A stretch of 64,000 nucleotides of DNA from Conyzicola sp. (lineage in GTDB: Bacteria; Actinomycetota; Actinomycetes; Actinomycetales; Microbacteriaceae): NCBI RefSeq assembly GCF_046714715.1, contig NZ_JBKKAD010000168.1:38152-102151 (forward strand). The letters are read 5' to 3'. Both the position numbers and the translations under genes were made by a program. The notes beneath the pieces are model-generated. The model was not told the origin of the DNA. It was given only the letters and a program-made list of their open reading frames with translations, and did no database searches. Of the stretch, positions 3,493 to 50,247 are shown one piece after another. The stretch's first letter is position 1; each line of letters begins with the position of its first letter.

Positions 3493-3671
3493 AGGGCACC
3501 ACGGGCAGAAGTCATTTCTTCACGGTATGTGCGCGCGCCGGATCGGAGCAGGCCTTGCTTTTCCCCTGCGTATCCGCAAGACCGCGCAGCGATGCGGATG
3601 TCGCGGGGCCGGTCGATGCCGTCGGGGTGCGTCGATCGGTCTGCGGCGGGGGCGTCGCCCTGCCGTGCGCC

Positions 3672-4133
3672 CTATCCCGCGAGCGCGCCGACCACCGGCG
3701 TCGTCAGCAGCACGAACCCGGCGACGTTCACCGCCGCGGTAACCCAGAAGACGGCGCGGAACGACCGCTTGGCCGTCTTGTGCCGCAGCATCTGCTGCGC
3801 GATGAGGGCGGCCGGCCAGCCGCCGACGACGGCGAGCAGGTGCAGCGTGTTCTCCGAGACGCGACGCCTGCCGGTTCCGGCGGCCCGCTTGTCGACGGCG
3901 TAGACGACGAAGGTGACGACACCCGCGACCAGGTAGAGCGCGTGCACCCAGACGGGGAACGGCCACTCGACCCACACGCCGAGATACAGCGCGGCGAAGG
4001 CGGCGAGCAGGATGTATCCGGGCAGGGCGGGCGCCGCTTTAGTGCGCGAAGAGCTCGTGGCCCTGCCTCGTGTGCCAGAGCCACGCACGTCGCGACCAAC
4101 GCCGCCCGTCGGTCGTCGCCCGTCAGATCCCAT
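3672..4133 (-). CDS. DUF1294 family membrane protein
   Basis: 153 aa; YAVDKRAA..RRRVSENTLHLLAVVGGWPAALIAQQMLRHKTAKRSF matches the DUF1294 signature as I recall it. Confidence 0.75.
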   Translation of the reverse strand: MGSDGRRPTGGVGRDVRGSGTRGRATSSSRTKAAPALPGYILLAAFAALYLGVWVEWPFPVWVHALYLVAGVVTFVVYAVDKRAAGTGRRRVSENTLHLLAVVGGWPAALIAQQMLRHKTAKRSFRAVFWVTAAVNVAGFVLLTTPVVGALAG

Positions 4134-8891: not shown

Positions 8892-9019
8892 GTATGAATT
8901 TTCCCAAGCGACCGTCGCGCGTGGTGAAGATCCGGCCAAACTCGGGAGCGTTCTCCACAGGCAATATCTGTGGAGGACCGGTTGACCCGCCCCCTACCCC
9001 CGCGAGTACGGTCGTGCCC

Positions 9020-9352
9020 ATGGCGAACATCGTGGAAAAGATCGCGCAACAGGTCACATCCGTTGGCGCGAAGGCAAGCTATGGAGAACCGGTCACCGTC
9101 GGTGGAGTCGAGCTCGTTCCCGTCGCGCTGGTCTGGTTCGGATTCGGCGGCGGAAGTGACGAAGCCGAGCAGGGCGGAGGAGGCGGCGGAGGCGCCAGTA
9201 TCCCGGTCGGCGCCTACGTGCGCGGGCCGGACGGCGCCAAGTTCAAGCCGAACCTCGTGGCGCTGCTCGCGGTCACCGTGCCGATCGCCTGGGCGGTGAG
9301 CTGGGGAATCGTGGGTATCGCGCTGGCAGCGTCCGGTCGACGCAAGCGGTAG
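9020..9352 (+). CDS. GerW/YtfJ-like protein
   Basis: Start at internal ATG (MANIVEKIAQQV..SYGEPVTVGGVELVPVA..GGGGG..PVGAYV), the pattern of the YtfJ/GerW family; C-terminal TM segment. Confidence 0.65.
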   Translation: MANIVEKIAQQVTSVGAKASYGEPVTVGGVELVPVALVWFGFGGGSDEAEQGGGGGGGASIPVGAYVRGPDGAKFKPNLVALLAVTVPIAWAVSWGIVGIALAASGRRKR

Positions 9353-9359
9353 CGGGGCA

Positions 9360-9417
9360 GGTTTCGATACGGGCGCGGGCGCCCTACTCAACCAGCAGAC
9401 GGCCCTACTCACCCAGC
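9360..9417. repeat. GAGTAG-element, right-half copy plus duplicated terminal arm
   Basis: ggtttcgatacgg-gcgcgggcgc-cctactcaaccag followed by cagacggccctactcacccag. Confidence 0.8.
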
Positions 9418-9526
9418 GACGAAAAACCTAATCCGTGTCATCCGGTATATATCCCGCAGCGACAGGCGTTGGCTTGGGGGTGTGGCGCGATCCGCCACTG
9501 TTCCGCAATGTAAGGAGAACGGCTCT

Positions 9527-10360
9527 ATGAGTGCAGTACCCACCATCAAACTGAATGACGGCGTCGAGATTCCGCAGCTCGGATTCGGCGTGTTCCAGGT
9601 GCCGCCCGAGGACACCAAGAAGGCCACGCTCCAGGCGCTCGAGGTCGGCTACCGCCACATCGACACCGCCGAGATGTACGGTAACGAGAAGGGCGTCGGC
9701 GAGGCCGTCGCCGAGTCGGGAATCGCGCGCGACGAGATCTTCGTCACGAGCAAGCTGAACAACACGTTCCACGCCCGCGAAGACGCGCTCAAGGCGTTCG
9801 ACACCACCATGGAGGCGCTCGGATTCGAGACGCTCGACCTCTTCCTCATCCACTGGCCGATGCCCGCCGTCGGCGATTACGTCGAGACGTGGAAGGCCAT
9901 GGAGGAGATGAAGGCATCCGGCCGCGTCCGCTCGATCGGCGTGTCCAACTTCCAGCCCGCGCACCTTCAGCGTCTGTTCGACGAGACCGAGACCGTGCCC
10001 TCGGTCAACCAGATCGAGGTGCATCCGTACCTCACGAACGAGGTCGCCCGCGCGTTCAACGCTCAGCACGGTATCGCCACCGAGGCGTGGTCGCCGATCG
10101 CCAAGGGCAACGTGCTCACCGACCCCGTCGTCACCGCGATCGCCGAGCGGGTCGGCCGCAGCGCCGCCCAGGTCACCCTGCGCTGGCACATCCAGCGTGG
10201 CGACATCGTGTTCCCGAAGTCGGTCACGCGCAGCCGGGTCGAGGAGAACCTCGCCCTGTTCGACTTCGAGCTCACCGACGCCGACATCGACGCCATCGCG
10301 AAGCTCAACCGCGATGAGCGCACGGGTCCCGACCCCGACACGTTCAACTGGATTCCGTAA
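9527..10360 (+). CDS. aldo/keto reductase (2,5-diketo-D-gluconate reductase-like)
   Basis: ATG at 9527 with AAGGAG 8-14 nt upstream; LNDGVEIPQLGFGVFQ, GYRHIDTAEMYGNE and IHWP motifs. Confidence 0.9.
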   Translation: MSAVPTIKLNDGVEIPQLGFGVFQVPPEDTKKATLQALEVGYRHIDTAEMYGNEKGVGEAVAESGIARDEIFVTSKLNNTFHAREDALKAFDTTMEALGFETLDLFLIHWPMPAVGDYVETWKAMEEMKASGRVRSIGVSNFQPAHLQRLFDETETVPSVNQIEVHPYLTNEVARAFNAQHGIATEAWSPIAKGNVLTDPVVTAIAERVGRSAAQVTLRWHIQRGDIVFPKSVTRSRVEENLALFDFELTDADIDAIAKLNRDERTGPDPDTFNWIP

Positions 10361-19287: not shown

Positions 19288-19368
19288 CCGGTTGAGTAGG
19301 TCGCTCAGCGACCGTATCAAAACCCCTCCACAGGTCTCGATACGGCCGCGGGCGGCCTACTCGACCGG
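19288..19368. repeat. GAGTAG-element, full copy
   Basis: ccggttgagtagg-tcgctcagcga-ccgtatcaaaacc-loop-ggtctcgatacgg-ccgcgggcgg-cctactcgaccgg; lies between convergent genes. Confidence 0.85.
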
Positions 19369-19376
19369 CGTGACCG

Positions 19377-20072
19377 CTACCAGGGCATAACCCCGTCGCG
19401 CGCCACGAACGTGCCCGTCGGTCCATCGGCGCCGATCGTCGCCATCGCCACGACCGCGTCGGTTCCCTCGGCCACGGTCTGCGTGCCGCTGTTGCCGTTC
19501 AGGTCGGTCGCCGTGTACCCGGGGTCGACCGCGTTGACGCGCATGTCGGGAAACGCCTTGGCGTACTGCACCGCGATCATCGTGGCGGCCGATTTCGACG
19601 AGCCGTACGCGATCGTCGCGAAGGTCGACTCGATGTGCGCCGGGTCGTTCACCCGGTCGAACGAGCCGAGTCCGCTCGATACGTTCACAATGACCGGCGA
19701 CTGTGACTTGCGCAGCAGCGGGAGCATCGCGTGCGTTACTCGCACGACGCCGAAGACATTGACGTCGTACACCTCGCGCACGATGTCGGCCGTCACGTCG
19801 GCAGAGTCGGCCTGCGACCCCGAGATGCCGGCGTTGTTGACGAGCACATCGAGGTGGCCTGCTTCTTCGAGGATGGATGCCGCAGCGCCCGCCACAGACG
19901 CGTCATCCGTCACATCGATCTGTACGAATCTCGCGCCGAGCGATTCGGCCGCGGCCGCTCCCTTCTCTGCGTCGCGGGCTCCGAGATAGACGGTGTGGCC
20001 GAGTTCGATGAGGCGTCGTGCGGTTTCGAAACCGAGACCTTTGTTGGCTCCTGTGATGAGTGTTGTTGTCAT
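19377..20072 (-). CDS. SDR family oxidoreductase
   Basis: 231 aa; TGANKGLG Rossmann motif, NNAG, YGSSK catalytic motif. Confidence 0.9.
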   Translation of the reverse strand: MTTTLITGANKGLGFETARRLIELGHTVYLGARDAEKGAAAAESLGARFVQIDVTDDASVAGAAASILEEAGHLDVLVNNAGISGSQADSADVTADIVREVYDVNVFGVVRVTHAMLPLLRKSQSPVIVNVSSGLGSFDRVNDPAHIESTFATIAYGSSKSAATMIAVQYAKAFPDMRVNAVDPGYTATDLNGNSGTQTVAEGTDAVVAMATIGADGPTGTFVARDGVMPW

Positions 20073-21134: not shown

Positions 21135-22334
21135 ATGAAAACGATCGTCATCGTCGGAGGCGGGTACGCCGGCGTCATCTGCGCCAACCGCCTGCGCTCG
21201 TCGCTCAGCGATGCGGAAGCAGCCAGCGTCCGCATTCGTCTGATCAACCCCGATGAGCATTTTTACGAGCGCATCCGCTTCCATGAGGTCGCCGCAGGCA
21301 CCCGTGACACTGCGGCCATCCCACTCGCAGACATGCTGCACCCCGATGTGCAGCTCACTATCGGCACGGCGGCGCACATCGATCCGGCAAAGCGCGTAGT
21401 CGACGTGCGCGAGGCGAGAGGCGGTCTCTCCACCTACGCATACGACAAGCTCGTCTACGCGGTGGGAAGCGGCGACTCCACAGACCGAGTCAAAGGCGCT
21501 GGCGAGTTCACGTATGCAATAGCTGACCCTCATTCGGCTACAGCGGCGGCGGGATCGATCGCCGCTGCCCGAGCTGGACAACGTGTCGTCGTCGTCGGAG
21601 GCGGTTTCACCGGAGTGGAGACGGCCGCTGAGGTCGCGGAGAAGAATCCGGAGCTGCGGGTCACTCTGGTCACGTCAGGGCCCCTGGTCAGACCAATGCG
21701 TGCTCGGGCGCGGCGCAGCATCACCAAGCGTCTCAACCGGCTGGGCGTTGATATCGAGAACCGCCCTTTTGTATCCTCCGTGACCGAAGGCACTCTGCAT
21801 TTCGTCGACGAGTCGACGATGGTGTTCGACGTCTGCTTATGGACAGCGGGATTCTCAGTGCCCGACCTCGCTCGGGATAGCGGTCTCGCCTGCGATGAGG
21901 TCGGGCGGCTACGAGTCGATGAGCATCTCCGCTCGATCGACGTCCCGGATATTCTTGGCGCCGGTGACGCCGTGCGACTCCCCGAGCAGTACGGACAGCA
22001 CCTGCGCATGGGTTGCGCGGCGGCGCTCCCGCTTGGCGGCGCGGCGGCCGATGTCCTCCTCGCCCTCCTGCGTCGCCGACCATTGCCGATCACGTCAGTC
22101 GGGTTCTTGGTGCAGTGCATCAGCATCGGTCGGCGCGACGGCTACGTTCAATTTGTGAGGTCGAACGACACAGCAACACCTTTTGCCATCGGTGGCTCAC
22201 TTGGTGCACGGTTTAAAGAGATGATCTGCACGATGACTGTCGACGGTCCGCGTAAAGAGCGGAGCAAGCCGGGAGCATACTGGGCACCCAAGGGGCCCAA
22301 GCCACTGGCCGACGGGGAGCTGACTCGCGCATGA
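21135..22334 (+). CDS. NAD(P)/FAD-dependent oxidoreductase (type II NADH dehydrogenase-like)
   Basis: 399 aa; two GxGxxG dinucleotide folds (IVGGGYAG, VVGGGFTG); AGGAGG RBS. Confidence 0.85.
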   Translation: MKTIVIVGGGYAGVICANRLRSSLSDAEAASVRIRLINPDEHFYERIRFHEVAAGTRDTAAIPLADMLHPDVQLTIGTAAHIDPAKRVVDVREARGGLSTYAYDKLVYAVGSGDSTDRVKGAGEFTYAIADPHSATAAAGSIAAARAGQRVVVVGGGFTGVETAAEVAEKNPELRVTLVTSGPLVRPMRARARRSITKRLNRLGVDIENRPFVSSVTEGTLHFVDESTMVFDVCLWTAGFSVPDLARDSGLACDEVGRLRVDEHLRSIDVPDILGAGDAVRLPEQYGQHLRMGCAAALPLGGAAADVLLALLRRRPLPITSVGFLVQCISIGRRDGYVQFVRSNDTATPFAIGGSLGARFKEMICTMTVDGPRKERSKPGAYWAPKGPKPLADGELTRA

Positions 22335-23242
22335 CCGTTGCCGCACCGGGGAGTGCTGATCACCGTCGGCTATTCGGCGTCGCCTACCGTATCTTCGGTT
22401 CGGTTCATGACGCCGAAGATGCGGTCCAGGAGGGGCTCATACGCTGGCACCGTCTGGATCAGGATCAGCGCGACCTGGTGCGAGAGCCAATGGCCTGGCT
22501 CACTCGCGTCGTCAGTCGGATTTGCCTAGACGAATTGGGGTCGGCACGAGCTCGTCGCGAACAGTACACCGGCATTTGGCTGCCCGAGCCACTCATCGGC
22601 TCCTATGCCGGGGAAGGTTCGGGTCGTGGAGCGATGGACCCGGCCGATTCCATCAGTCTGGACGAGTCGGTGTCTCTGGCACTCCTCGTCGCGATGGAGA
22701 GATTGAGTCCGGGGGAGCGGGTCAGTTTGATCCTTCACGACGTCTTTGGTCTCAGTTTCGATGACATCGCCGAAATCGTCGGGCGGACAACCGGATCATG
22801 CCGACAGCTCGCCTCCACCGCTCGACACAAGATCGGCGCGCCTCCGCGGCCGACGTCGAGCACGTCGGACCAGAAGGAACGCGACGGAGTAGTAGAGGCC
22901 TTTCTCGGTGCGTGCATGGGCGGCGATTTGGAAGCGCTCGTCCGCGTCCTAGACCCGAGCGTCGTGTCGAGAGCTGATGGTGGTGATCACACCCGGGCAG
23001 CAAGGAAGGCTGTTGTCGGATCGGACCTCGTTGCTCGTTATCTTCTCGGAGTCGTGGGGAAGCAGCGTCAGCTCACGGCGACGCTAGCAACCACGATTGA
23101 AATGGTGAACGGTCGCACCGGAATCGTCACGCGTGAGGGGGACAGGATCATCGGCGTCTTCGATCTGGAGATCGTTAGTGGTCGAGTCACCGAGATCGCG
23201 ATCCAAGTCAACCCGGAAAAGCTTCACGTCTACACGCCCTGA
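22331..23242 (+). CDS. ECF sigma factor, ECF41/SigJ-like with C-terminal SnoaL-like extension
   Basis: 303 aa; region 2 (DAEDAVQEGLIRW), region 4 (DDIAEIVGRTTGSCRQLASTARHKI) and a roughly 110-aa extension; 4-nt overlap with the upstream oxidoreductase. Confidence 0.8.
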   Translation: MTVAAPGSADHRRLFGVAYRIFGSVHDAEDAVQEGLIRWHRLDQDQRDLVREPMAWLTRVVSRICLDELGSARARREQYTGIWLPEPLIGSYAGEGSGRGAMDPADSISLDESVSLALLVAMERLSPGERVSLILHDVFGLSFDDIAEIVGRTTGSCRQLASTARHKIGAPPRPTSSTSDQKERDGVVEAFLGACMGGDLEALVRVLDPSVVSRADGGDHTRAARKAVVGSDLVARYLLGVVGKQRQLTATLATTIEMVNGRTGIVTREGDRIIGVFDLEIVSGRVTEIAIQVNPEKLHVYTP

Positions 23243-23962: not shown

Positions 23963-24053
23963 CTCGCGCAGCGAGCGGCCACGCTGGTTGAGTAGCTCGC
24001 GCAGCGAGCGGCCACGCTGGTTGAGTAGCTCGCGCAGCGAGCGTATCGAAACC
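23951..24053. repeat. GAGTAG-element variant: outer-left arm plus side hairpin in about 2.8 tandem 33-bp copies, then one inner arm
   Basis: ctggtYgagtagctcgcgcagcgagcggccacg at 23951, 23984 and 24017, ending gtatcgaaacc; the first copy encodes the last codons and TAG stop of dedA. Confidence 0.85.
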
Positions 24054-26375: not shown

Positions 26376-26960
26376 ATGGGTCGCTCGAAGACATTCGCCG
26401 ACGTCGAAGTCGTGCGCGCGGCGCGAGAGGCGTTCTGGAGCAAGGGCTACGAGAGCACCGGCATCGCCGACCTCGAGACCGCGACCGGGCTCAACCGCTC
26501 CAGCATCTACCACGCGTTCGGCAGCAAGCGCGGACTGTTCGACGAGGCCGTCGAGTCGTACCTCGACGACGTCGTGCGTCCCCGCCTCGCGCCCCTCGCT
26601 GCCGAGGTGGTCGCCCCCAACGCGCTCGAGACCTACCTGCGAGGACTCCGTGACGCGATGGTCGACGAGCCGACCTCGCTTGCGGTGAACGGATGCCTCT
26701 TGCTGAACGCCACAGCGGCGCTCCTCGGTCACGAGGGCGGACTGCAGCAGGTCGTGACGCGTTACTGCGCCGAACTGCGCGCTGGCGTCACTGCTGGCGC
26801 GATCGCGCGGCACCCCGACGTCGACGCCCCGACGATCGAACTCATCGCGACCACAGTCACCGGCCTGGTCTTCGCGTCGATGGTCGTCGTGCGCGTCGAC
26901 CGCACCGCCGCGGGCCGCACGCTCGACGCCGCACTGAGCGCCGCAGAAAGATCAATGTAA
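26376..26960 (+). CDS. TetR/AcrR family transcriptional regulator
   Basis: MGRSKTF..REAFWSKGYESTGIADLETATGLNRSSIYHAFGSKRGLF HTH; GGGGAG RBS. Confidence 0.85.
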   Translation: MGRSKTFADVEVVRAAREAFWSKGYESTGIADLETATGLNRSSIYHAFGSKRGLFDEAVESYLDDVVRPRLAPLAAEVVAPNALETYLRGLRDAMVDEPTSLAVNGCLLLNATAALLGHEGGLQQVVTRYCAELRAGVTAGAIARHPDVDAPTIELIATTVTGLVFASMVVVRVDRTAAGRTLDAALSAAERSM

Positions 26961-27014
26961 AACATTCTTGACACGCGCTACCAGCGCGCCCTACTCTTCC
27001 CATGTAAAGAAACT

Positions 27015-27452
27015 TTGACATGGGAGAGACCGATGACACTCGAAGAACGCCGCTCGTGGACCTACCTCGCCGTGGCCGTCGTCGTGTACGGGGGCTACCT
27101 GTTCTCCGTGCTGGGGAGGGCCGCATCCGCCCCTCTCGTCGACGTCGACTACGTGCCCGCGATGCTCTGGTCGATCGGTATCGCGATCGTCGCCGGCATC
27201 GTCATCAACATCGTGATTGGCATGTTCACGCCGCGTCGCGACCAGAAGACGGACGTGCGCGACCGCGACATCGGCTACCTCGGCGACCGGGTCGGGCAGT
27301 CGTTTCTCGTGATCGGCGCCCTCGCCGCCCTGCTGCTGGCCATGATCGAGGCGGACTACTTCTACATCGCGAACGTGCTCTACCTGGGCTTCGTGCTGTC
27401 GGCGGTGCTCGGCGCGATCACCAAGGTCATCGTCTACCGCAGGGGTTTCTGA
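27015..27452 (+). CDS. hypothetical membrane protein (partner of the small XRE regulator)
   Basis: 145 aa with 4 TM helices; immediately upstream of the HTH gene, a recurrent gene pair. Confidence 0.55.
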   Translation: MTWERPMTLEERRSWTYLAVAVVVYGGYLFSVLGRAASAPLVDVDYVPAMLWSIGIAIVAGIVINIVIGMFTPRRDQKTDVRDRDIGYLGDRVGQSFLVIGALAALLLAMIEADYFYIANVLYLGFVLSAVLGAITKVIVYRRGF

Positions 27453-27454
27453 CC

Positions 27455-27676
27455 GTGGTCAAGGCGACGAGTGTCACTAACAACATCCGTGCGTTGCGCG
27501 CCTCAACCGGCGAGATGACGCAGGCCGACCTGGCGGAGCGCATCGGCGTCACCCGCCAGACCATCATCGCCATCGAGCAGGGACGCTATTCGCCCTCGCT
27601 CGAGGTGGCGTTCCAGATCGCGCGCGAATTCAAGGTTCCGCTCGACGACGTCTTCCAATACGGAGGTTCCAACTGA
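27455..27676 (+). CDS. XRE-family helix-turn-helix transcriptional regulator (YozG-like, 73 aa)
   Basis: GTG 2 nt after the upstream stop; NIRALRASTGEMTQADLAERIGVTRQTIIAIEQGRYSPSLEVAFQIAREF. Confidence 0.75.
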   Translation: MVKATSVTNNIRALRASTGEMTQADLAERIGVTRQTIIAIEQGRYSPSLEVAFQIAREFKVPLDDVFQYGGSN

Positions 27677-28650
27677 TGAAAGCGATAGTGCAAGACCGAT
27701 ACGGCGACTCGTCTGTGCTGCACCTCGACGACGTGCCCATGCCGACGATCGGCGACGACGACGTGCTGATCGAGGTGCGCGCCACCTCGCTCAACATCGG
27801 CGACATCCATCTCATGACGGGACTGCCGCTGATCATGCGCCCGTTCGTGGGATTCAAAGGTCCCAGACAAAGAATCAGGAGCATGGATGTCGCGGGGCTG
27901 GTGCACTCCGTCGGCCCTCGTGTCACGGCCTTCAGGCCCGGCGACGAGGTGTTCGGCGTCGTCGACGCCGGTCTCGCCGAGTATGCCCGCGCCTCGGTCA
28001 AGAAGATCGCCCCGAAGCCGGCCTCGCTCTCGTTCGAGCAGGCCTCGGCGATCCCCACGTCCGCGGCCACCGCCCTGCACGCGCTGCGCGACACCGGTCA
28101 CGTGCAGGCCGGGCAGAAGGTGCTGATCATCGGAGCGTCCGGCGGTGTCGGCATCTTCGCAACCCAGCTCGCGAAGGCGTTCGGCACACACGTCACCGGC
28201 GTCGCCAGCACCGCGAAGCTCGACCTGGTGCGCTCGCTCGGCGCCGACGAGGTCATCGACTACACGACGACCGACTTCACCCGGTCGGGGGAGCGCTACG
28301 ACCTGATCGTCGACATGGCGAGCACGCACACGTTCGGCGATCTGCGCGGCGTTTTGGCACCCGACGGCACGCTTGTGATCGTCGGGGGAGAGGCCGGCGG
28401 CCGCTTCACCGGCGGCGTCGGTCGCGCGATGACGGCACCGCTGCGGGCCATCGGCTCAAAGCAGAAGCTGAAGGGCCTGATCTCGCTGACAACCGCCGCC
28501 GACCTCGCCATGCTCACTGAGTTCGTCGAAGCGGGCAAGCTGGCGCCCGTGATCGACGCCGCGCATCCGCTGGCGGATGCATCCGAGGCAATGGCTCACC
28601 TGCAGTCATCGCGCGGGTCAGGCAAGCTCGTGCTCACACCTGCCGGTTGA
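27676..28650 (+). CDS. NAD(P)-dependent alcohol dehydrogenase / quinone oxidoreductase (MDR)
   Basis: 324 aa; IIGASGGVGIFATQLAK Rossmann motif; ATGA overlap with the upstream stop; its stop TGA lies inside a GAGTAG-element. Confidence 0.85.
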   Translation: MKAIVQDRYGDSSVLHLDDVPMPTIGDDDVLIEVRATSLNIGDIHLMTGLPLIMRPFVGFKGPRQRIRSMDVAGLVHSVGPRVTAFRPGDEVFGVVDAGLAEYARASVKKIAPKPASLSFEQASAIPTSAATALHALRDTGHVQAGQKVLIIGASGGVGIFATQLAKAFGTHVTGVASTAKLDLVRSLGADEVIDYTTTDFTRSGERYDLIVDMASTHTFGDLRGVLAPDGTLVIVGGEAGGRFTGGVGRAMTAPLRAIGSKQKLKGLISLTTAADLAMLTEFVEAGKLAPVIDAAHPLADASEAMAHLQSSRGSGKLVLTPAG

Positions 28651-28679
28651 GTAGGTCGCTCCGCGACCGTATCGAAGCC
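28643..28679. repeat. GAGTAG-element, left-half copy
   Basis: ccggttgagtagg-tcgctccgcga-ccgtatcgaagcc; truncated exactly where the low-GC island begins. Confidence 0.8.
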
Positions 28680-28684
28680 TGCTT

Positions 28685-28732
28685 TCGAAAAGCGAGCCGC
28701 CACTATCACTATCCAACATGGCGGCGGCTCGC
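28685..28732 (-). terminator. rho-independent terminator candidate ending the small Cys-rich ORF / helicase transcription unit
   Basis: 10-bp stem gcgagccgcc / ggcggctcgc (21-nt loop) followed on the minus strand by TTTTCGAAA. Confidence 0.5.
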
Positions 28733-28789
28733 CCTCGTGCGTAACTGCGACGTCAGGCAGCTAAGGCTCGACGAGCATTTTGCTCTTTA

Positions 28790-28939
28790 TTAACCCATAG
28801 CGATGCATTGCTTACAGCGGTCGTTTCCGCCGGTACCGGAAACACGATTGCTCGCGGGGATCTGTTGTCCCGTGGGGCAATGTTCGTGATCATGATAGAC
28901 GTCGGGATCCGACGGGTTTGACGAGTGATATGCGCTCAT
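28790..28939 (-). CDS. hypothetical small Cys-rich protein (49 aa)
   Basis: Not in the ORF track; MSAYHSSNPSDPDVYHDHEHCPTGQQIPASNRVSGTGGNDRCKQCIAMG; strong AAGGAG 6 nt upstream of the ATG; C-x20-C-x2-C spacing. Confidence 0.55.
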   Translation of the reverse strand: MSAYHSSNPSDPDVYHDHEHCPTGQQIPASNRVSGTGGNDRCKQCIAMG

Positions 28940-29017
28940 GACGTTCTCCTTTGAAACATCGTGAGGAGCAAGGTGCCCCTACAACGCAACTGTATGTAAC
29001 GGATGCGGCACAGGGGC

Positions 29018-31105
29018 CTACGAAACGCCGACCCACAGCCCGTCACGCGCTCGCGTCATCGCCACATACAGTGCGCGGCGATCAAGTTCTCGACGCTCGC
29101 TCGATGCGTTGTCAGCGGCGGGTGCAGATTCGAGAAGTGAGCGGGGTGTACGTGCCATCAGTACCTGTTTGAACTCGAGCCCCTTCGCCCGGTGAACGGT
29201 TCCGACCTTCACCGCATCAACTGCTTGACCGCTGTAATGCGTCAGCTCAACCGTGGGGATTCCGGCAGCCTGCAGCGCCTTGACCATGTGAGCAGCCTGC
29301 CAATTGGCGAGTGCGAGCACACCCACATCGCCGTAACTCGTGCCCGTCGCCTTGACAGCCAGAACGTGGTCCACAAGCGATTCGTCGTGGAGGGTGGTTG
29401 AAGCGAACCGTGTAATCATTGGGGCGGGGCCGTGCCTCAGGATCTCCTGTGAAGCATCCGCCATGCTTATCGCGCCCTCGATGTCGACGAATTCGTCGCC
29501 GGCGACAAGCGAGGCGGCGAACTCTACGATCTCGAAGGTATTTCTGTAGTTCGTGGTCATGACAACGCCGCGGCCAGCGATCGACACATTCGCCTCGGCA
29601 AGAGTGAAGCCGCCAGGGTAGATCGTCTGTTGGCCGTCGCCGATCAGGTTGAGCCCGTCGGGCTTGTTGCCAACGAGCGAGTGCAACATTCGCACCATCA
29701 TGCACGTGAGATCCTGAGCCTCGTCAATGATGACCGCGCTGTAGCCTTCGAGCGGCTTCGTCCGTAGCGAGGCAGCGGCGTGCAGGATGACATCGGGGAA
29801 GTCGTAGATCTGGGCTGCGATTCGAGCCTTCTCGTAGGCAACGTAGAAGCGCCACACGTGGCGGCGCTGCTCGACAGTCAGCCGTCGACGTCGCCCGGAA
29901 CGCGCCAGAGCGGAGTACTGATCGATGGTCCGGATGCCACGGCCTTTGATCACTGCATTGATCTCGTCGAGCCAGTAATCGGCTGAAGGGTCGAGCACCT
30001 CAAGGTCGGCGCCATAACGGGACCAAGTGGCGTCGAAGAGGCTCTCAGCCTCTTCATGTTGAAGATTGACGTGCACGCCTCGCTGTTTGAGTACGTCGAG
30101 GGCGAACGAATAGACGCCGTGAAACTCGACGCGGTCACTCACATCGGGAGCGAGCCGCGCGAGTAGCGATTCGAGCACCGCAGGGAGGGTTCGGACGAAC
30201 GCCGTAACGAGTACCTTGCCCTGATTCGATCGCGCCAAATAGGCCGCGCGATGCAAACCGACGACGGTCTTTCCCGTCCCGGCAGCGCCGCGAATCCGCG
30301 AAGGACCGGAAAAGGTCCGATTCACGAGCTTCGCCTGCGTCGGGTGCAGGAACGCCATCCAATCTTCGATCGGAAGCGCCATCACTCCCTCGACGAGTGC
30401 GCTCTCGATCTCGGCGGCCGTCAATCTGTTCACATAGACGGCTTCAGGCAAAAGGTCCGGTAGGTCTTCGGGCAGAACGGGTTCGACGAACGACAGATCC
30501 AGCTCCAGTGAATTGTCGGTCTCATAGATGGGAAAAAGCTCGTCTAAGGCCTCGACGACGTTCGCCAACTGAGCGGTGGAGAGTCGCGCGCCCGCTCGCG
30601 AGATGCGCGTCACCACCTCAGCTTCGGAGAGGAGGGTGACCCCGTAGAGGTCCGTGCTCTTGAAGTTCCGCTTGTCAGTGAAAACCGCCAGCGCGTGAAC
30701 TTCGCCGGGCGCTAGCCCGATGTCCGCGAGAATTGTGCGGGTGGAGTCGGCTAGGTCAGCGATGTTGGCGAAGTCATCCGTGACATCCGCCTGATCCCGA
30801 AAGACGGCCCCGCCGGCGACAGTCACGTCGCGCCACGCTTTGGCGTCGACGATGAAGACTCCGCCCGGACCAGCGACGATGAAGTCGACCTGCGCGCGAC
30901 GGCTTTTCGGCCACCGACGGTCGGCCAACACCGTGTAGCCGCGGCTCTCGAGCACTTCGAGTGTGTGCGCTAGGCGCCGCTCGCTGTGTGCGGCCGCAGC
31001 AAAGCGTCGTTCCATTTCCTTTGCGGCGGTCGCGAGGCGTTCGAGTTCTCCGGCCAGCAAGCCCTGGCGGTGCGACTCGAGTGCGGCGGAATCACCTGCG
31101 GGCAT
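29018..31105 (-). CDS. NERD nuclease domain - UvrD/REP-type SF1 helicase fusion protein
   Basis: 695 aa; NERD-type PD-(D/E)xK motif QVDFIVAGPGGVFIVDAKAW; helicase Walker A GAAGTGKT, motif II VIIDEAQDL, motif VI VGTVHRAKGLEFKQV. Confidence 0.85.
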   Translation of the reverse strand: MPAGDSAALESHRQGLLAGELERLATAAKEMERRFAAAAHSERRLAHTLEVLESRGYTVLADRRWPKSRRAQVDFIVAGPGGVFIVDAKAWRDVTVAGGAVFRDQADVTDDFANIADLADSTRTILADIGLAPGEVHALAVFTDKRNFKSTDLYGVTLLSEAEVVTRISRAGARLSTAQLANVVEALDELFPIYETDNSLELDLSFVEPVLPEDLPDLLPEAVYVNRLTAAEIESALVEGVMALPIEDWMAFLHPTQAKLVNRTFSGPSRIRGAAGTGKTVVGLHRAAYLARSNQGKVLVTAFVRTLPAVLESLLARLAPDVSDRVEFHGVYSFALDVLKQRGVHVNLQHEEAESLFDATWSRYGADLEVLDPSADYWLDEINAVIKGRGIRTIDQYSALARSGRRRRLTVEQRRHVWRFYVAYEKARIAAQIYDFPDVILHAAASLRTKPLEGYSAVIIDEAQDLTCMMVRMLHSLVGNKPDGLNLIGDGQQTIYPGGFTLAEANVSIAGRGVVMTTNYRNTFEIVEFAASLVAGDEFVDIEGAISMADASQEILRHGPAPMITRFASTTLHDESLVDHVLAVKATGTSYGDVGVLALANWQAAHMVKALQAAGIPTVELTHYSGQAVDAVKVGTVHRAKGLEFKQVLMARTPRSLLESAPAADNASSERRELDRRALYVAMTRARDGLWVGVS

Positions 31106-31251
31106 TCGCGGATCCTGTCGTCGTGACGCTCACGGCCGAGCGTCCGTCTCATCCTGCACTAGCTGAGCCTCCCTCGACAGAGGCCAGTTGTGGGGGTAGC
31201 TGACTCCCGTCAGAATTCAATAATGCTGAGATTTACTAGTAGTTTGAACGC

Positions 31252-32973
31252 ATGTTGTCTTGGGGAGTTAGTGATTTCAAATCGCTCGTGTCAGCTCGAT
31301 TGAAACTCGACGGGCGACGGTTAAGCGTTGTGAGCGGTACCAACAGCTCCGGAAAATCGTCACTTTTGCAATCACTATTGCTCCTATCGCAGTCAAGTGC
31401 CGGAGGAGGCGAGCTTGCGCTCAACGGTCGACTGGTGCGTCTGGGTGCGCCTGATGACGTGGTGCGTAACGGTCAAAAGAGTCTCGAGCTCGCCTTCGAA
31501 TTCTCTCCGGTCGAAGGTAGATCGCAAGGACAGACCGCTCCTGAAATGAAAGTGCAGTTTTCCCTTGCCCCAAACGGACCTAGGCTCACCGTCGTTGATG
31601 TCGAGATTTTGGACCTAGCCGACGCAACAGTTGTTTTCGAGGCGACGGTGACTCGGCTGAACCGGGCAGACGTAAAGGCGCTATCTGACCTGCTCAGGGA
31701 CGATTCACTAACGGTGCTCCGAATATCTACGGAGAACCAACGACGCGCTGCAAACAGGATGTATTTGGTTCTGCGAGGTTTGATGCCGGTGGGAATCGCA
31801 CTGATCAGATCGGCCTCGTGGATAGAAAAAACCTATAACGGCTACGTCGAGGACTCGAGCTTCAAGAGCCCCAACGTTCAGGAGAACCCAAACCGGCTAC
31901 GTTCCTTTGTGACGAATGAACTCAGTTTGCTGGTGAACAAACGGGAGTTCATGGCCTCGCACCCCGAAATCGAACCGATTGAAGATCAGTCGCCGATGTA
32001 TCGAACTCGGTGGTCACTTCAAGAGTGGCGATCAATGGAAGCGAATGTCCGCCAAGAGCTGGTGGATTTGGCTATTCGTCAGCGTTCTCGGAACCCCTGG
32101 GTGGTCATTTCGACCAATGGCGCTCGTTTCGACGGGCGGAATCCCACGCGCTATCAAGGGCTCGTAGAGAACGTGGTGGCAAGCGAACACGAGCTAGCTC
32201 TACACCTACTCGCGACAGTGGGGGAGGAAATTGAGAACACGGCGGACGATATCGCATACCTCGGGCCGCTGAGGGACGAACCGAGGGTTGTCCATAGCGC
32301 TTGGGACGAGCGAATGGAATCTTTGCCTGTTGGTATTCGTGGCGAGTTGACTGCCGAAGTGCTAACCCGGCTAAAAGATCATCGGGTGACGTATGGCGAT
32401 TGGGATGGTAAAACCCGAACAGAGAGGCTACCGGAAGCGGTCAGTCGCTGGTGCGAGTACTTGGGCATTGGAGACCACATTGAGGTGATCGATCACGGGA
32501 AACTGGGACGCGGCGTTCGACTTAGAGTTGAGGGCGTTCATCGAGACCTTACGACGATTGGCGTGGGTGCAAGCCAGCTGCTTCCGGTCTTAGTCGCGGC
32601 ATTGGCTATCGACGAGAATTCAATACTTTTGATTGAGCAGCCCGAACTTCACCTGCATCCCGCGGTCCAGTCCCGCCTGGCAGACTTCTTCTTGTTCGCC
32701 CGCCCTGACGTTCGACTCATAGTAGAGACCCATAGTGAGTATCTCGTGACTCGCCTGCGTCGTCGTGTTGCTGAGGGCCGTACGCCTAGCGACGGCATAG
32801 CGGTCATATTCGTGGAGCAGGAGAACGGAGCGTCGACTCTCCGCACCCTTTCGATCGATCAATTCGGGGACATGTCGGAATGGCCCACGGGGTTCTTTGA
32901 CGCGCAGGATTCTGACTCGCTCGCGATTATGAAAGCTGTAGCTAGGACGATGCAAGCCGGGCTCGATTCGTGA
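31252..32973 (+). CDS. ABC-type (AAA_15/AAA_21-like) ATPase with DUF3696-like C-terminal tail
   Basis: 573 aa; N-terminus DFKSL..VVSGTNSSGKSS (Walker A), GVGASQLLPV signature-like, ILLIEQPELHLHP (Walker B/D-loop), VETHS (H-loop), terminal WPTGFFD; no TOPRIM region. Confidence 0.85.
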   Translation: MLSWGVSDFKSLVSARLKLDGRRLSVVSGTNSSGKSSLLQSLLLLSQSSAGGGELALNGRLVRLGAPDDVVRNGQKSLELAFEFSPVEGRSQGQTAPEMKVQFSLAPNGPRLTVVDVEILDLADATVVFEATVTRLNRADVKALSDLLRDDSLTVLRISTENQRRAANRMYLVLRGLMPVGIALIRSASWIEKTYNGYVEDSSFKSPNVQENPNRLRSFVTNELSLLVNKREFMASHPEIEPIEDQSPMYRTRWSLQEWRSMEANVRQELVDLAIRQRSRNPWVVISTNGARFDGRNPTRYQGLVENVVASEHELALHLLATVGEEIENTADDIAYLGPLRDEPRVVHSAWDERMESLPVGIRGELTAEVLTRLKDHRVTYGDWDGKTRTERLPEAVSRWCEYLGIGDHIEVIDHGKLGRGVRLRVEGVHRDLTTIGVGASQLLPVLVAALAIDENSILLIEQPELHLHPAVQSRLADFFLFARPDVRLIVETHSEYLVTRLRRRVAEGRTPSDGIAVIFVEQENGASTLRTLSIDQFGDMSEWPTGFFDAQDSDSLAIMKAVARTMQAGLDS

Positions 32974-33842
32974 GGACGATCGTCTTTGACCCTGGTCTGG
33001 CGCTTTCAACTTTCAGCTCTCCAGTGGAACAAAGTCGTTTCTGGGTTCGTTTTGTCGAATGGGAGCGCGATGAACGCGTCGCAATGGGCAGTGAAACGCA
33101 TGGAGCAGTGAGTCACTTCTACGCGACGCGAGTATGCAGCAGCGGCAGTAGCGTGCCGGCAGGCATGTCCAAAGGGGTGCATCGAGCAATGAAGGCTCTG
33201 CTGAGCCGGCCCCCGCTCAAGAACGCTGATTCGTTTAGAGAGCGAACACTGGACGTAAAGTACCTTGGCAAGGACGCTAACGCCACTATTCTCGCGATTG
33301 ACATCGGGGCCATGCAGCATGCATCCGAGTTGCACCTCGCGATCGCCGCCGAATGCTGGCCTGCTGGTGTAACGGTTGGGCGCGTACTACCCGCTCCGCC
33401 GGAGCGGGTCTTCTTCCAAACGGTGCCGAACTCACCAACTGAATCGGAAAGGTGGGAAGCTCGCGCAGACGCGCTACAAGACTTCAAACTTCTTGTCGTC
33501 GGCGGCCAACCAGACAGGTCTGTTGCGGAATCACTACTTGCGAAACTGAATGTCGACAGATCTCGACTTGTATGGGTCCCCTGTGAGAAGTCCAAACCTC
33601 CGCGAAATCTGGATGCGCAAATCAAAGGTACCCGGGACTCACAAACGATTGTGATTTGCATCACCGGGAAGATGGGGCATTCGACGTCTAACAAAGTTCG
33701 GGAGAACTGCACGAAGGTGGGGATCCCGCTTGTCAACGTGGAGTCTGCGGGTGAGATATTGCCGAAACTTGGAAAGTACGCCGATGCGTTGGTCGCCGCC
33801 GCTCGTCTGGCTCTGAGCACCGGTGCTGACGTGGGAGCCTAG
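32970..33842 (+). CDS. hypothetical protein with DUF2325-like C-terminal domain
   Basis: 290 aa; GTG overlaps the ATPase stop (GTGA); C-terminus LLVVGGQPD..(about 45 aa)..TIVICITGKMGHSTSNKVRENCTKVGIPLVNVES fits the DUF2325 pattern as I recall it; N-terminal 170 aa unrecognised. Confidence 0.6.
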   Translation: MRTIVFDPGLALSTFSSPVEQSRFWVRFVEWERDERVAMGSETHGAVSHFYATRVCSSGSSVPAGMSKGVHRAMKALLSRPPLKNADSFRERTLDVKYLGKDANATILAIDIGAMQHASELHLAIAAECWPAGVTVGRVLPAPPERVFFQTVPNSPTESERWEARADALQDFKLLVVGGQPDRSVAESLLAKLNVDRSRLVWVPCEKSKPPRNLDAQIKGTRDSQTIVICITGKMGHSTSNKVRENCTKVGIPLVNVESAGEILPKLGKYADALVAAARLALSTGADVGA

Positions 33843-33929
33843 AACCACAGCCCCCACATAGAAACCGCATAGCCGCCCCTGTCTAACTAGTCACACCTCG
33901 TTCACCGACTAGTAACCCAGGAGCGCACC

Positions 33930-37068: not shown

Positions 37069-37184
37069 CTGGTTGAGTAGGTCGCCCAGCGACCGTATCG
37101 AAACCCCGCCGAGGTTTCGATACGGGCCGTAGACGGCCCTACTCAACCAGCGGGTACCCGCCGCAGACGGCCCTACTCGACCGG
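37069..37184. repeat. GAGTAG-element, full copy plus an extra right terminal arm
   Basis: ctggttgagtagg-tcgcccagcga-ccgtatcgaaacc-ccgccga-ggtttcgatacgg-gccgtagacggc-cctactcaaccag, then ..cagacggccctactcgaccgg. Confidence 0.9.
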
Positions 37185-37276
37185 CTGTTTCGGTACGGTG
37201 ATGTCGAGAACACCGGCCCGGCTCCGACTCCTGTGTGAGACGCCCGCCCCGGGCATCCGAAAACGAGGAGTGAACG

Positions 37277-37636
37277 ATGAAGTACATGATCGCAATGTTC
37301 GGAAGCGCCGAGGAGATGGGCGCCACGAAGACACCGGAGTGGATCGGCGAGATGATCCAGTTCATGATCGCCATCGACGGGCGCCTGCGCGACTCGGGCG
37401 AGATGGTTTACAACGAGGGACTCGCCGACCCCAGCCAGGCCAAGGTCGTGCGGCTCGAGAACGGACAGCCGGTCGCGACCGACGGTCCGTTCGCCGAGGC
37501 GAAGGAGTCGGTCATCGGCTTCTGGGTGGTCGACGTGGCGAGCGAGCAACGCGCGCTCGACATCTGCGCCGAGATCGTCGTGTGGTCTGAGGTGGTCGAG
37601 CTGCGTCCCGTCCCGTCGGGGCCGCCCGAGCAGTGA
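37277..37636 (+). CDS. YciI family protein
   Basis: 119 aa; MKYMIAMFG.., DGPFAEAKESVIGFWVVDV motif. Confidence 0.8.
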   Translation: MKYMIAMFGSAEEMGATKTPEWIGEMIQFMIAIDGRLRDSGEMVYNEGLADPSQAKVVRLENGQPVATDGPFAEAKESVIGFWVVDVASEQRALDICAEIVVWSEVVELRPVPSGPPEQ

Positions 37637-37646
37637 CAGACAAGCA

Positions 37647-38864
37647 GTGACAGACGAGCGCGTCGTCGTCGGCCTGCTGCGCGAACTCGCGCCGCAGGTC
37701 GTCGGCGTGCTCGCCCGCCGCTACGGCGACTGGTCGGCCGCCGAAGACGCCACCCAGGAGGCGCTGCTCGCCGCCTCGACCGCATGGAGCACTGACGGGA
37801 TTCCGGATCATCCGCGGTCCTGGCTCATCACGGTCGCCTCGCGCCGGGTCATCGACTCGCTGCGCAGCGACATCGCCCGCCGCGAGCGCGAATACAGTGT
37901 CGCCGCGCTCGAGGTTGCGACGGCCGTGCCCGGCGACGACGACTCTCTCACCCTGCTCTACCTGTGCTGCCACCCGGCGCTCTCGCAGCCGTCGCAGCTC
38001 GCGCTCACCCTGCGCGCCGTGGGCGGGCTGACGACGGCCGAGATCGCGCGCGCGTTTCTCGTGCCCGAATCGACCGTCGCGCAGCGCATCAGCCGGGCGA
38101 AGCAGCAGATCCGCGCGGCCGGGCTGCGCTTCGAGCCGCCTCCCGCACACGACCTTGACGCGCGGCTCGCCGTCGTGCTGCAGGTGCTCTACCTGATCTT
38201 CAACGAGGGCTACACGCCAGGTTCGCGGTCGGTCGCCGCGGGCGCGGACCTGACGGACGAGGCGATCCGCATAGCCCGGATGCTGCGGGCCAGCCTCCCG
38301 GCGGACGGCGAGGTAGCAGGGCTGCTCGCCCTGATGCTGCTCACCGACGCCCGCCGGGCAGCCCGCGAACTGCCCGACGGCATGCTCGTTCCGCTCGCCG
38401 AACAGGACCGCAGGCTCTGGAACGCCGCGCTCATCGCCGAGGGCACCGCGCTGCTGACCGCCACCCTCGGCTCAGTCGCGGTCGGGCCGTACCAGCTGCA
38501 GGCGGCGATCGCCGCGCTGCACGACGAGGCCGCGACCCCGGATGACACGGACTGGCCGCAGATCCTCGCGCTGTACACCGTGCTCGAGCGCATCGCGCCG
38601 GGACCGGTGGTCACGCTCAACCGCGCCGTCGCGGTCGCGATGGTCGACGGGCCGCTCGCCGGACTCGCCCTGCTCGGAACGATCGCGGGGGAGGCGGGGC
38701 TGGCGCACACGCACCGGTTCGACGTGGTGCGCGGGCACCTGCTCGAGCTCGCCGGGGATGCCGTCGGCGCGGTGGAGGCGTACGGCACCGCGATGCGCGG
38801 AACGGTCAGCGTGGCCGAACGCCGCTACCTGGCGCTGAAGGTCGCGCGGCTCGCTGCCGGTTGA
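37647..38864 (+). CDS. RNA polymerase sigma factor (ECF-like, long C-terminal TPR-like extension; YciI-associated type)
   Basis: 405 aa; region 2 EDATQEALLAA..HPRSWLITVASRRVIDSLR, region 4 TTAEIARAFLVPESTVAQRISRAKQQI; stop TGA inside a GAGTAG-element. Confidence 0.8.
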   Translation: MTDERVVVGLLRELAPQVVGVLARRYGDWSAAEDATQEALLAASTAWSTDGIPDHPRSWLITVASRRVIDSLRSDIARREREYSVAALEVATAVPGDDDSLTLLYLCCHPALSQPSQLALTLRAVGGLTTAEIARAFLVPESTVAQRISRAKQQIRAAGLRFEPPPAHDLDARLAVVLQVLYLIFNEGYTPGSRSVAAGADLTDEAIRIARMLRASLPADGEVAGLLALMLLTDARRAARELPDGMLVPLAEQDRRLWNAALIAEGTALLTATLGSVAVGPYQLQAAIAALHDEAATPDDTDWPQILALYTVLERIAPGPVVTLNRAVAVAMVDGPLAGLALLGTIAGEAGLAHTHRFDVVRGHLLELAGDAVGAVEAYGTAMRGTVSVAERRYLALKVARLAAG

Positions 38865-38938
38865 GTAGCGCCCTCTAGGGCGCGTATCGAAACCCTCGCG
38901 AGGTTTCGATACGGTCGCTGAGCGACCTACTCAACCAG
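38857..38938. repeat. GAGTAG-element, full copy
   Basis: ccggttgagtag-cgccctctagggcg-cgtatcgaaacc-ctcgcga-ggtttcgatacgg-tcgctgagcga-cctactcaaccag; supplies the stop codons of both convergent flanking genes. Confidence 0.9.
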
Positions 38939-47499: not shown

Positions 47500-47536
47500 C
47501 CGGTTGAGTAGGTCGCTCCGCGACCGTATCGAAACC
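47500..47536. repeat. GAGTAG-element, left-half copy
   Basis: ccggttgagtagg-tcgctccgcga-ccgtatcgaaacc. Confidence 0.85.
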
Positions 47537-50152: not shown

Positions 50153-50234
50153 CCGGTCGAGTAGGTCGCCCCGCGACCGTATCGAGACCCTCGGAGGGTT
50201 TCGATACGGGCCGCAGGCGGCCCTACTCAACCGG
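50153..50234. repeat. GAGTAG-element, full copy
   Basis: ccggtcgagtagg-tcgccccgcga-ccgtatcgagacc-ctcggag-ggtttcgatacgg-gccgcaggcggc-cctactcaaccgg. Confidence 0.9.
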
Positions 50235-50247
50235 CGTATCTGTCTGC

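Follow-up and report, generated by a model that had tools for sequence, protein, structure and literature searches.

A low-GC stretch of the Conyzicola sp. (Microbacteriaceae) genome, at positions 28680-33844 of the window, is very probably an acquired defence island at a chromosomal hotspot. By window we mean the whole stretch of DNA analysed, 64,000 nucleotides (nt) from NCBI RefSeq assembly GCF_046714715.1 (contig NZ_JBKKAD010000168.1, positions 38,152 to 102,151 of the forward strand). The island holds a small Cys/His-rich gene and a NERD-UvrD helicase on the minus strand and, on the plus strand, an ABC ATPase gene overlapping that of a DUF2325-like partner protein. Our overall explanation, which we consider likely, is that of an acquired defence island combining a nuclease-helicase with a two-gene module resembling Menshen, the NsnA-NsnB-NsnC system reportedly described by Millman et al. 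in 2022. As a whole, the island is an ordinary kind of object, namely defence genes at a variable chromosomal site. The original prediction, made from the letters of the DNA, had proposed a horizontally acquired candidate defence island at 28680-33900, and this proposal is supported by deviant composition, by absence of the island from five relatives, by an alternative Lamassu gene at the same site and by matches to defence models of PADLOC.

Composition and right border of the island

Across 28680-33900 the GC content is 58.3%, compared with 68.3% in the rest of the window. This stretch is the lowest among all 5.2-kb windows, with a minimum at 28701 (mean 67.2%, standard deviation 2.9%), confirming the sharp drop that had been proposed from five hand-counted 60-nt lines, all of which are exact (38.3, 55.0, 58.3, 66.7 and 70.0% GC). 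The predicted shift in codon usage is equally clear. More specifically, GC content at third codon positions (GC3) was compared with that of 35 native-looking genes of the window (0.882 +/- 0.044) and is 0.58 for the 49-amino acid (aa) open reading frame (ORF; z -6.9), 0.72 for the helicase (z -3.6) and 0.60 for both the ATPase and its partner (z -6.5 each), while self-referenced codon adaptation index z scores of the island ORFs range from -3.3 to -5.6. Composition is two-part inside the island, with 62% GC in the helicase gene and 55-57% in the ATPase pair. The four ORFs are present as originally listed; in a set of ~15 billion proteins each of the four products is a singleton at 90% identity, with its nearest relatives dispersed over other actinobacterial families.

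The right border was mapped by comparison with contigs that carry VTC orthologs of 87-100% identity (L067, L068, L149, L150 and L151). Homology to the window starts at 33844/33845 in every one of them, 2 nt past the stop codon of the partner gene, and downstream of this sharp border the relatives are collinear with the window; in a five-sequence alignment, conservation runs from 'CCACAGCC' onward. The relatives' shared breakpoint thus sets the border at 33844|33845, and the right edge earlier placed at 33900 has to be given up. At the 33845 junction the island is present in 0/5 related contigs. L149, which is 94.9% identical to the window over 1.67 kb, carries at the same junction the 3' end of the Lamassu gene LmuB (PADLOC 9.7e-33), ending ~30 nt before it. 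Upstream of the junction lie copper and Dyp-peroxidase genes in L067 and glyoxalase, HxlR and LacI genes in L068, and contigs L150 and L151 terminate exactly there, which is the assembly behaviour expected at a polymorphic site. Different cargo thus occupies this site, making it a hotspot or, at the minimum, a breakpoint of synteny, and the presence of LmuB at the same junction in a ~95%-identical relative points to a defence hotspot.

The first base of the native DNA on the right is also the first base of an 85-nt leader of the DUF4956-VTC operon (33845-33929, plus strand), which is conserved in five genomes (L149 1561-1645, L067 9311-9395, L068 9314-9398 and L150 1-87, besides the window). 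The leader contains a perfect palindrome, ACTAGTC-N14-GACTAGT, that could be an operator or an RNA hairpin.

An NsnB-like ATPase and a partner read as NsnC-type

Proteins were annotated with Pfam and with the defence models of PADLOC-DB v2.0.0. As had been expected of the island proteins, PADLOC models match both the helicase (C3a187, 3.4e-34) and the ATPase (NsnB, 2.6e-62). The ATPase (573 aa; 31252-32973, plus strand) contains the Pfam domains AAA_21 (1.2e-17), AAA_15 (6.8e-16) and DUF3696 (4.6e-7; 30.4 bits vs a 22-bit cut-off). Its best PADLOC matches, after NsnB, are HEC-03B (1.2e-57), from Hma-embedded candidate 03 (HEC-03; Payne et al. 2024 preprint), and PDC-M55A (9.4e-49), and the profiles of GajA (5e-10), PtuA and AriA match weakly. 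Invariant in 47 homologs are the Walker A motif G29-x-N-S-x-G-K-S, the Walker B motif I-E462-Q-P-E, the GxG-type signature G437-V-G-x-S-Q, R341 and H494. NsnB itself has non-canonical motifs, namely a non-DE Walker B (EN rather than EQ) and a GxG signature (PMC12065111). By analogy, we take the ATPase to be the sensor/transducer subunit.

The partner gene (290 aa; 32970-33842, plus strand) starts with a 4-nt overlap of the ATPase stop. The original prediction had listed the ABC ATPase and the DUF2325-like protein as separate items; both are present, and they form one Menshen/HEC-03-like operon. A word-indexed search returned one relative of the partner only, while an exhaustive HMMER search returned 137 representative clusters. 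The family thus comprises at least 137 sequence clusters, mostly of 265-290 aa, seen here only in Actinomycetota. An AlphaFold2 model of the partner (pLDDT, for predicted local distance difference test, 95.1; predicted template modelling score, pTM, 0.87) has two domains, an N-domain at ~1-155 and a four-stranded Rossmannoid C-domain at ~170-290. A Foldseek search of the PDB with the whole partner gave generic Rossmann-like matches only (TM score <=0.27), and hmmsearch of the family profile against PDB sequences gave a de novo designed protein only.

Several results relate the C-domain to DUF2325. Pfam DUF2325 is found in the C-terminal part of 35 of the 81 aligned family members at E < 0.01 (best 1.7e-7), the top structural match of the C-domain in BFVD (viral structures) is a DUF2325 protein (probability 1.00), and the homolog on plasmid pROB02 is named 'DUF2325 domain-containing protein' by NCBI. 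A Toprim-like C-domain was also considered, given a similar topology and the likeness of 'IVGG' to 'VEG'. With neither a structure nor a profile of Toprim among its matches, this reading is retained as speculation only.

Modelled alone, the N-domain (pLDDT 94.6) retrieved PIN proteins as ~10 of its top 20 PDB fold matches, none of them significant; these include PAE2754 (1v8p), several VapC entries, PAE0151, FitB and HARP. NsnC-N likewise shows weak PIN resemblance (PMC12065111), and 1v8p (PAE2754) is apparently the same protein as the 1V8O cited in the Menshen paper (PMC12065111). Conserved positions of the family are D7 (100%), D34 (95%), R36, D111 (99%) and W130 in the N-domain, E160 in the linker, and G178-G179, W202, E206 (98%) and H237 (100%) in the C-domain.

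Gene coupling and domain exchange

A metagenome scan was anchored on the ATPase, and all ORFs of the recovered loci were scored with profile hidden Markov models (HMMs). Wherever the ATPase belongs to the close clade (more than 420 bits), the gene directly downstream encodes a full partner or an N-domain relative. A full partner comes next in nine distinct loci (L062, L063, L065, the window, L069, L071, L073, pROB02 and Clavibacter), and wherever the starts are unambiguous among these nine, the genes overlap by 4 or 8 nt. In the representative library, P0179 (666 aa) joins a C-terminal half of the ATPase (AAA_21 at 235-296) to a full partner (395-636) in one ORF, being either a natural fusion or a read-through/frameshift of the 4-nt overlap. 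In the Clavibacter michiganensis locus (GCA_002240565.1, L156 ~8716-9567), the full-length partner gene (HMM 6.6e-90) lies in a 1.2-kb uncalled stretch and is probably a missed gene call.

The partner is not the only form in which the N-domain occurs. In Mycobacteroides abscessus (L158/L159, 8775-9701), the partner N-domain (profile 4-161, 9e-14) is joined to an NsnC C-domain that PADLOC recognises as NsnC over residues 149-308 (3.6e-42). L070 (~2880-3802) similarly combines the N-domain (3.5e-15) with a C-terminal region whose resemblance to the M. abscessus one was judged by eye only. All these chimeras stand downstream of a close-clade ATPase without NsnA, and L072 has a plain NsnC. Since its N-domain is joined to a true NsnC effector domain in M. 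abscessus, the partner itself is best read as NsnC-type. Judged from these sequences, its arrangement of a constant N-terminal adaptor and an exchangeable C-terminal module is the NsnC design, with the DUF2325-like domain as the putative occupant of the effector slot.

Across Actinomycetota, the ATPase-partner pair usually adjoins defence or mobile genes. The neighbours are type I restriction-modification genes in Rhodococcus, an integrative and conjugative element (ICE) with TraG, TrwC and SSB plus SIR2 in Leifsonia, HEPN, DUF262, C5-MTase, HNH, NaeI, Vsr and a DUF1998-helicase on the R. opacus B4 plasmid pROB02, and a Mokosh-like helicase with HTH-M78 in Clavibacter.

More distant ATPases (~300 bits) often have a ~920-990-aa gene directly upstream and a conserved ~348-aa protein after them (loci L074, L085, L093, L103, L105, L106, L118, L131, L139, L142 and L143). 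The upstream gene of L085, the one case scanned, is the PglXI methyltransferase of BREX type 3 (PADLOC E = 0). Two 348-aa proteins were scanned against PADLOC, with no match; the N-terminus of this family ('hhhDPxhhxxP') is remotely like that of the partner (hhalign 69% probability, E 4e-5). From their sequences, these loci look like an NsnBC-type pair embedded in BREX without NsnA.

The helicase, the small gene and non-coding DNA

The helicase (695 aa; 29018-31105, minus strand) has the Pfam domains NERD (5.8e-11), UvrD-helicase (1.1e-15) and UvrD_C (2.7e-16) and matches the PADLOC models C3a187 'NERD+UvrD' and GajB (6.7e-27). Its motifs, read from the translation, are intact: PD-(D/E)xK as D74...D88-A-K90, Walker A GAAGTGKT and DEAQD. 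We read it as a candidate stand-alone, single-protein nuclease-helicase defence gene.

Downstream of the helicase on the same strand, the 49-aa ORF (28790-28939, minus strand) is preceded by an AAGGAG Shine-Dalgarno ~6 nt upstream. Its product carries C21, C42 and C45 as well as H16, H18 and H20, and is probably a zinc-binding protein, judging from these residues; Pfam, NCBIfam and PADLOC gave zero matches to it. The ORF was called in the Logan assembly and is unannotated by NCBI, where it has no consecutive accession: the series WP_411700603 to WP_411700608 runs from ADH through helicase, ATPase and partner to VTC, with the one accession that was not returned presumably belonging to DUF4956. 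Across 92% of the length of the ORF, homologs 53-62% identical to it occur on Arthrobacter, Curtobacterium and Dietzia plasmids, where they adjoin HNH, GIY-YIG or TIR/caspase genes and are also unannotated. The ORF is thus a real small gene linked to mobile elements. A tie to NERD-UvrD was considered and rejected, as the plasmid homologs are not beside such helicases.

The GC drop begins in the non-coding left end of the island (28680-28789), in which we read a 10-bp perfect inverted repeat (28692-28701 / 28723-28732) and where a terminator scan found a terminator-like hairpin (28773-28785). Between the divergent helicase and ATPase genes lies an intergenic region (31106-31251) with an AT-rich stretch beside the ATPase start (38% GC in 31201-31260). 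It presumably holds the promoters of the helicase and the ATPase operon, to judge from its position in the sequence; a sigma-70 consensus scan of 31106-31251 found no promoter. Over the whole window, zero Rfam families matched at gathering thresholds.

The GAGTAG repeat and the surrounding region

Directly left of the island, the last native-type sequence is a half copy of a GAGTAG element (~28645-28679; copy 28649) that overlaps the ADH stop codon. The element is a palindromic REP-like host repeat, GGTTGAGTAGG-stem-CCGTATCGAAACC...GGTTTCGATACGG-stem-CCTACTCAACC, and a scan of the window gave six matches at <=3 mismatches vs 0 expected. Full copies lie at 19294-19385, 37070-37190 (copy 37075), 38840-38932 (minus strand) and 50155-50245 (copy 50159), and further half copies at 9363-9390 (minus strand), 24020-24050 and 47500-47535 (copy 47506). 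The original prediction had noted that the island's left edge coincides with the half copy. It is present and ends at 28679 as described; it is no specific insertion mark, the repeat being window-wide. As an insertion scar it was rejected, having no mate at the right border and none at the relatives' junction, and half copies occur elsewhere.

GAGTAG elements stand directly after stop codons, and the TGA/TAG of the element often supplies or overlaps the stop; copy 37075 has an additional partial arm behind it. Short-read assemblies break at these elements, as at the ends of L061 and L066, and exact-protein matches of the flank genes were found only in same-sample contigs broken at the repeat.

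The DNA around the island is also variable. The only metagenome-assembled genome (MAG) with the HTH-ADH block of the left flank is L001 (MAG RYN_62), from a more distant Microbacteriaceae, which is without the island and without the DUF4956-VTC-Cthe_2159 block. Here the HTH-ADH block joins sequence corresponding to window ~37201 (YCII and sigma factor), such that L001 118-1757 and 1865-3008 correspond to window 26956-28573 and 37201-38349. As HTH-ADH abuts YCII/sigma factor in this MAG, the DUF4956-VTC-Cthe_2159 block is also variably placed, and the whole 26-37 kb region is a mosaic. In L150, a TetR and SDR pair is inserted between the DUF4956-VTC-Cthe_2159 block and YCII.

Elsewhere in the window, a second, milder GC dip (21135-23242; 61-64% GC, GC3 0.67-0.71) has genes for a pyridine-nucleotide-disulphide oxidoreductase and for an ECF-type sigma factor, none of its content being defence-related.

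Proposed mechanism

We infer anti-phage activity, a physical complex, a trigger and an effector biochemistry along the following lines. The island was very probably acquired horizontally, into a variable hotspot that directly precedes, on the upstream side, the conserved DUF4956-VTC operon, and we read it as two independent modules plus a small gene. In the first module, the NERD-UvrD protein would translocate on and cut invading DNA.

For the second module, Menshen provides a template. An AlphaFold3 prediction for Menshen (NsnB4-NsnC2) shows NsnB as a tetramer, the DUF3696 tails of which pair up and clamp NsnC at its N-domain (PMC12065111). ATP binding or hydrolysis then regulates the NsnC effector, as in Septu and PARIS (PMC12065111). 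In the same way, the ABC ATPase of the island may oligomerise and its DUF3696 tails may clamp the PIN-like N-domain of the partner, keeping the partner inactive. Given that there is no separate NsnA sensor, the ATPase itself would sense the phage cue, serving as sensor as well as latch, and on infection the partner, the presumed effector, would be released or activated through ATP binding or hydrolysis. The DUF2325-like C-domain would sit in the slot of the NsnC nuclease or toxin domains. Either domain of the partner may do the damage: the exchange of C-terminal modules speaks for the DUF2325-like C-domain, and an active PIN-like nuclease (D7, D34, D111) is possible.

That the pair is a functional Menshen-like defence module seems to us reasonably probable, by analogy with these systems. 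A bolder form of this idea, which we put forward tentatively and hold to be rather doubtful, is that the pair is a self-sufficient, sensor-less 'NsnBC' system, with infection detected by the ATPase and the DUF2325-like domain serving as a new effector that is possibly not a nuclease (e.g., nucleotide-acting).

Weighing the explanations

A number of results weigh against the explanation given here. With regard to the acquisition, scans gave no tRNA in the window, only chance-level direct or inverted terminal repeats and no target-site duplication at the borders, and no integrase-type or mobility domain among the island ORFs and the flanking genes scanned; the original prediction had already noted these absences, which leave the insertion unexplained. 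That prediction had also suggested aligning the locus with relatives, in which ADH might directly abut DUF4956. Absence of the island was found, in the five contigs; a clean ADH/DUF4956 empty site was seen in none of the relatives examined, because the ADH side itself is unconserved in them. A scan of the GTDB species representative genomes found no ADH ortholog above 69% identity, the left flank (ADH block) is not beside DUF4956 in any relative, and only the right border is mapped. Since the left flank is without synteny, the junction could also be a rearrangement breakpoint. With regard to the pair, PADLOC system-relevant models gave zero matches to the 81 aligned partner members, and the M. 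abscessus locus has no obvious defence neighbours. The window partner scores 19.9 bits against Pfam DUF2325, below the 33.6-bit cut-off, and the literature yielded no functional data on DUF2325 and no known activity for the fold. The PIN-likeness of the N-domain is non-significant (best Foldseek E 0.41, TM score <=0.4), and the 95-100% conservation of D7/D34/D111 means that the N-domain could be the nuclease and the C-domain regulatory.

How far do these points favour other explanations? The missing integrase, tRNA and target-site duplication, together with a left flank that is non-syntenic in every relative and so allows a large rearrangement, would suit a block of native DNA, of low expression or under relaxed selection, at a rearrangement breakpoint. 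Yet the identical junction is occupied in a 95%-identical relative by another defence gene, the four proteins are singletons at 90% identity with their nearest relatives in other actinobacterial families, and GC3 z scores reach -6.9, making this account very hard to sustain. Acquisition of the island being preferred, the pair might serve it as a toxin-antitoxin-like addiction or stabilisation module, with the partner as toxin, the ATPase as restraint and maintenance of the element as the primary role. The pair does occur on a plasmid and inside an ICE, its ATPase matches Pfam AAA_21 ('putative AbiEii toxin, type IV TA', where TA stands for toxin-antitoxin), and HEC-03 expression is toxic in E. 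coli (bioRxiv 10.1101/2024.01.29.577857). However, the genes around the pair are overwhelmingly those of defence and not of replication or partition, and its closest characterised relatives, Menshen and HEC-03, protect against phage; we regard maintenance as the primary role as unlikely, noting that maintenance and defence are not mutually exclusive. Even less probable in our estimate is that helicase and pair form one Gabija-like multi-gene system of ABC ATPase, effector and UvrD-type helicase. It would account for the weak GajA match of the ATPase (5e-10) and the GajB match of the helicase (6.7e-27), for the adjacency of genes diverging from a single intergenic region and for the SF1 (superfamily 1) helicase near the pair in Clavibacter. 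But that helicase belongs to another family (Mokosh-like SF1B), and the pair occurs without NERD-UvrD in Rhodococcus, Leifsonia, pROB02, M. abscessus and several metagenome contigs. Moreover, GC3 differs between helicase (0.72) and pair (0.60), and full-length NERD-UvrD homologs on plasmids, found in Embleya only, have no listed ATPase partner.

Implications

Through the pair, the validated Menshen and HEC-03 systems are connected with a family not recognised as a system by PADLOC-DB v2.0.0, and DUF2325, a domain of unknown function, would be placed where toxins sit in NsnC. Should the sensor-less NsnBC proposal be true, it would provide a first function for DUF2325, and the NsnB/NsnC core would be a portable chassis in at least three settings: with NsnA in Menshen, after PglXI in BREX type 3, and stand-alone in Actinomycetota, with Clavibacter michiganensis and Mycobacteroides abscessus among them. 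The conserved residues offer targets for mutagenesis, namely Walker A K35 in the ATPase and D7/D34/D111 and E206/H237 in the partner. Hosts of the pair include the plant pathogen Clavibacter michiganensis, and the form with an NsnC-type C-domain is found in the human pathogen Mycobacteroides abscessus, for which phage therapy is being explored.

Comparison with known systems

Chromosomal defence hotspots with alternative cargo occur in other bacteria. The site described here shares with them a conserved flank gene, an exact common junction and strain-specific defence systems (Lamassu vs the island). It differs in having no integrase or satellite backbone and in that one border is mapped.

Among the individual genes, the helicase has the two-domain architecture of the PADLOC candidate C3a187 'NERD+UvrD', whose model it matches (3.4e-34). 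The ATPase matches PDC-M55A (9.4e-49) and comes first in gene order as in PDC-M55, whereas the partner matches no PDC-M55 model. No record of validation of the PDC-M55 or C3a187 candidates was found in the literature searched. The pair follows the same general plan as Gabija, Septu and PARIS, in which an effector is held and regulated by an oligomeric ABC ATPase, consistent with the weak GajA, PtuA and AriA matches, but it is without a Toprim, HNH or DUF4435 effector. Unlike in Gabija, the helicase bears a NERD domain, is encoded outside the operon on the other strand, and is missing from other loci of the pair.

Closest among characterised systems are Menshen and HEC-03. The window ATPase is NsnB-like (2.6e-62), with a DUF3696 tail, a non-canonical Walker B and a GxG signature, and the downstream gene overlaps it and encodes a weakly PIN-like N-domain and a separate C-domain, as NsnC does. 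In contrast to Menshen, no NsnA (DUF262/ParBDB) is adjacent in the window or in any close-clade locus examined. Upstream of the window ATPase lies the divergent NERD-UvrD gene, the island and flanks have no DUF262 Pfam match, the window contains no plausible ORF bearing DGxQR, and no DUF262 gene stands upstream of the ATPase in L063, L065, L152, L156 and L158. The Menshen census was seeded on NsnA (PMC12065111) and could therefore not have found an NsnA-less pair. The partner also differs from NsnC. It matches no PADLOC NsnC model, its DUF2325-like C-domain falls outside the 15 NsnC-C effector families (BECR, Toprim, PLD and others; PMC12065111), and its N-domain keeps D7, D34 and D111, whereas inPIN domains are described as without catalytic residues.

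HEC-03 consists of an ABC ATPase and a PIN protein with no third gene, and protects E. coli, both genes being needed (bioRxiv 10.1101/2024.01.29.577857). The window pair likewise has two genes, an ABC ATPase and no third sensor gene, and its ATPase matches PADLOC HEC-03B (1.2e-57). This model (PDLC04148) matches the ABC ATPase, while in the preprint HEC-03A is the ATPase and HEC-03B the PIN protein (bioRxiv 10.1101/2024.01.29.577857), which looks like a naming inconsistency. The window partner differs in that it matches no other HEC-03 model, has an extra DUF2325-like domain and is weakly PIN-like rather than VapC-like, and the pair lies in a chromosomal hotspot rather than embedded in an Hma system. 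On the evidence of sequence comparison, the pair is thus best described as a putative NsnA-less variant of the Menshen/HEC-03 type with an undescribed domain in the effector slot, so far found only in Actinomycetota.

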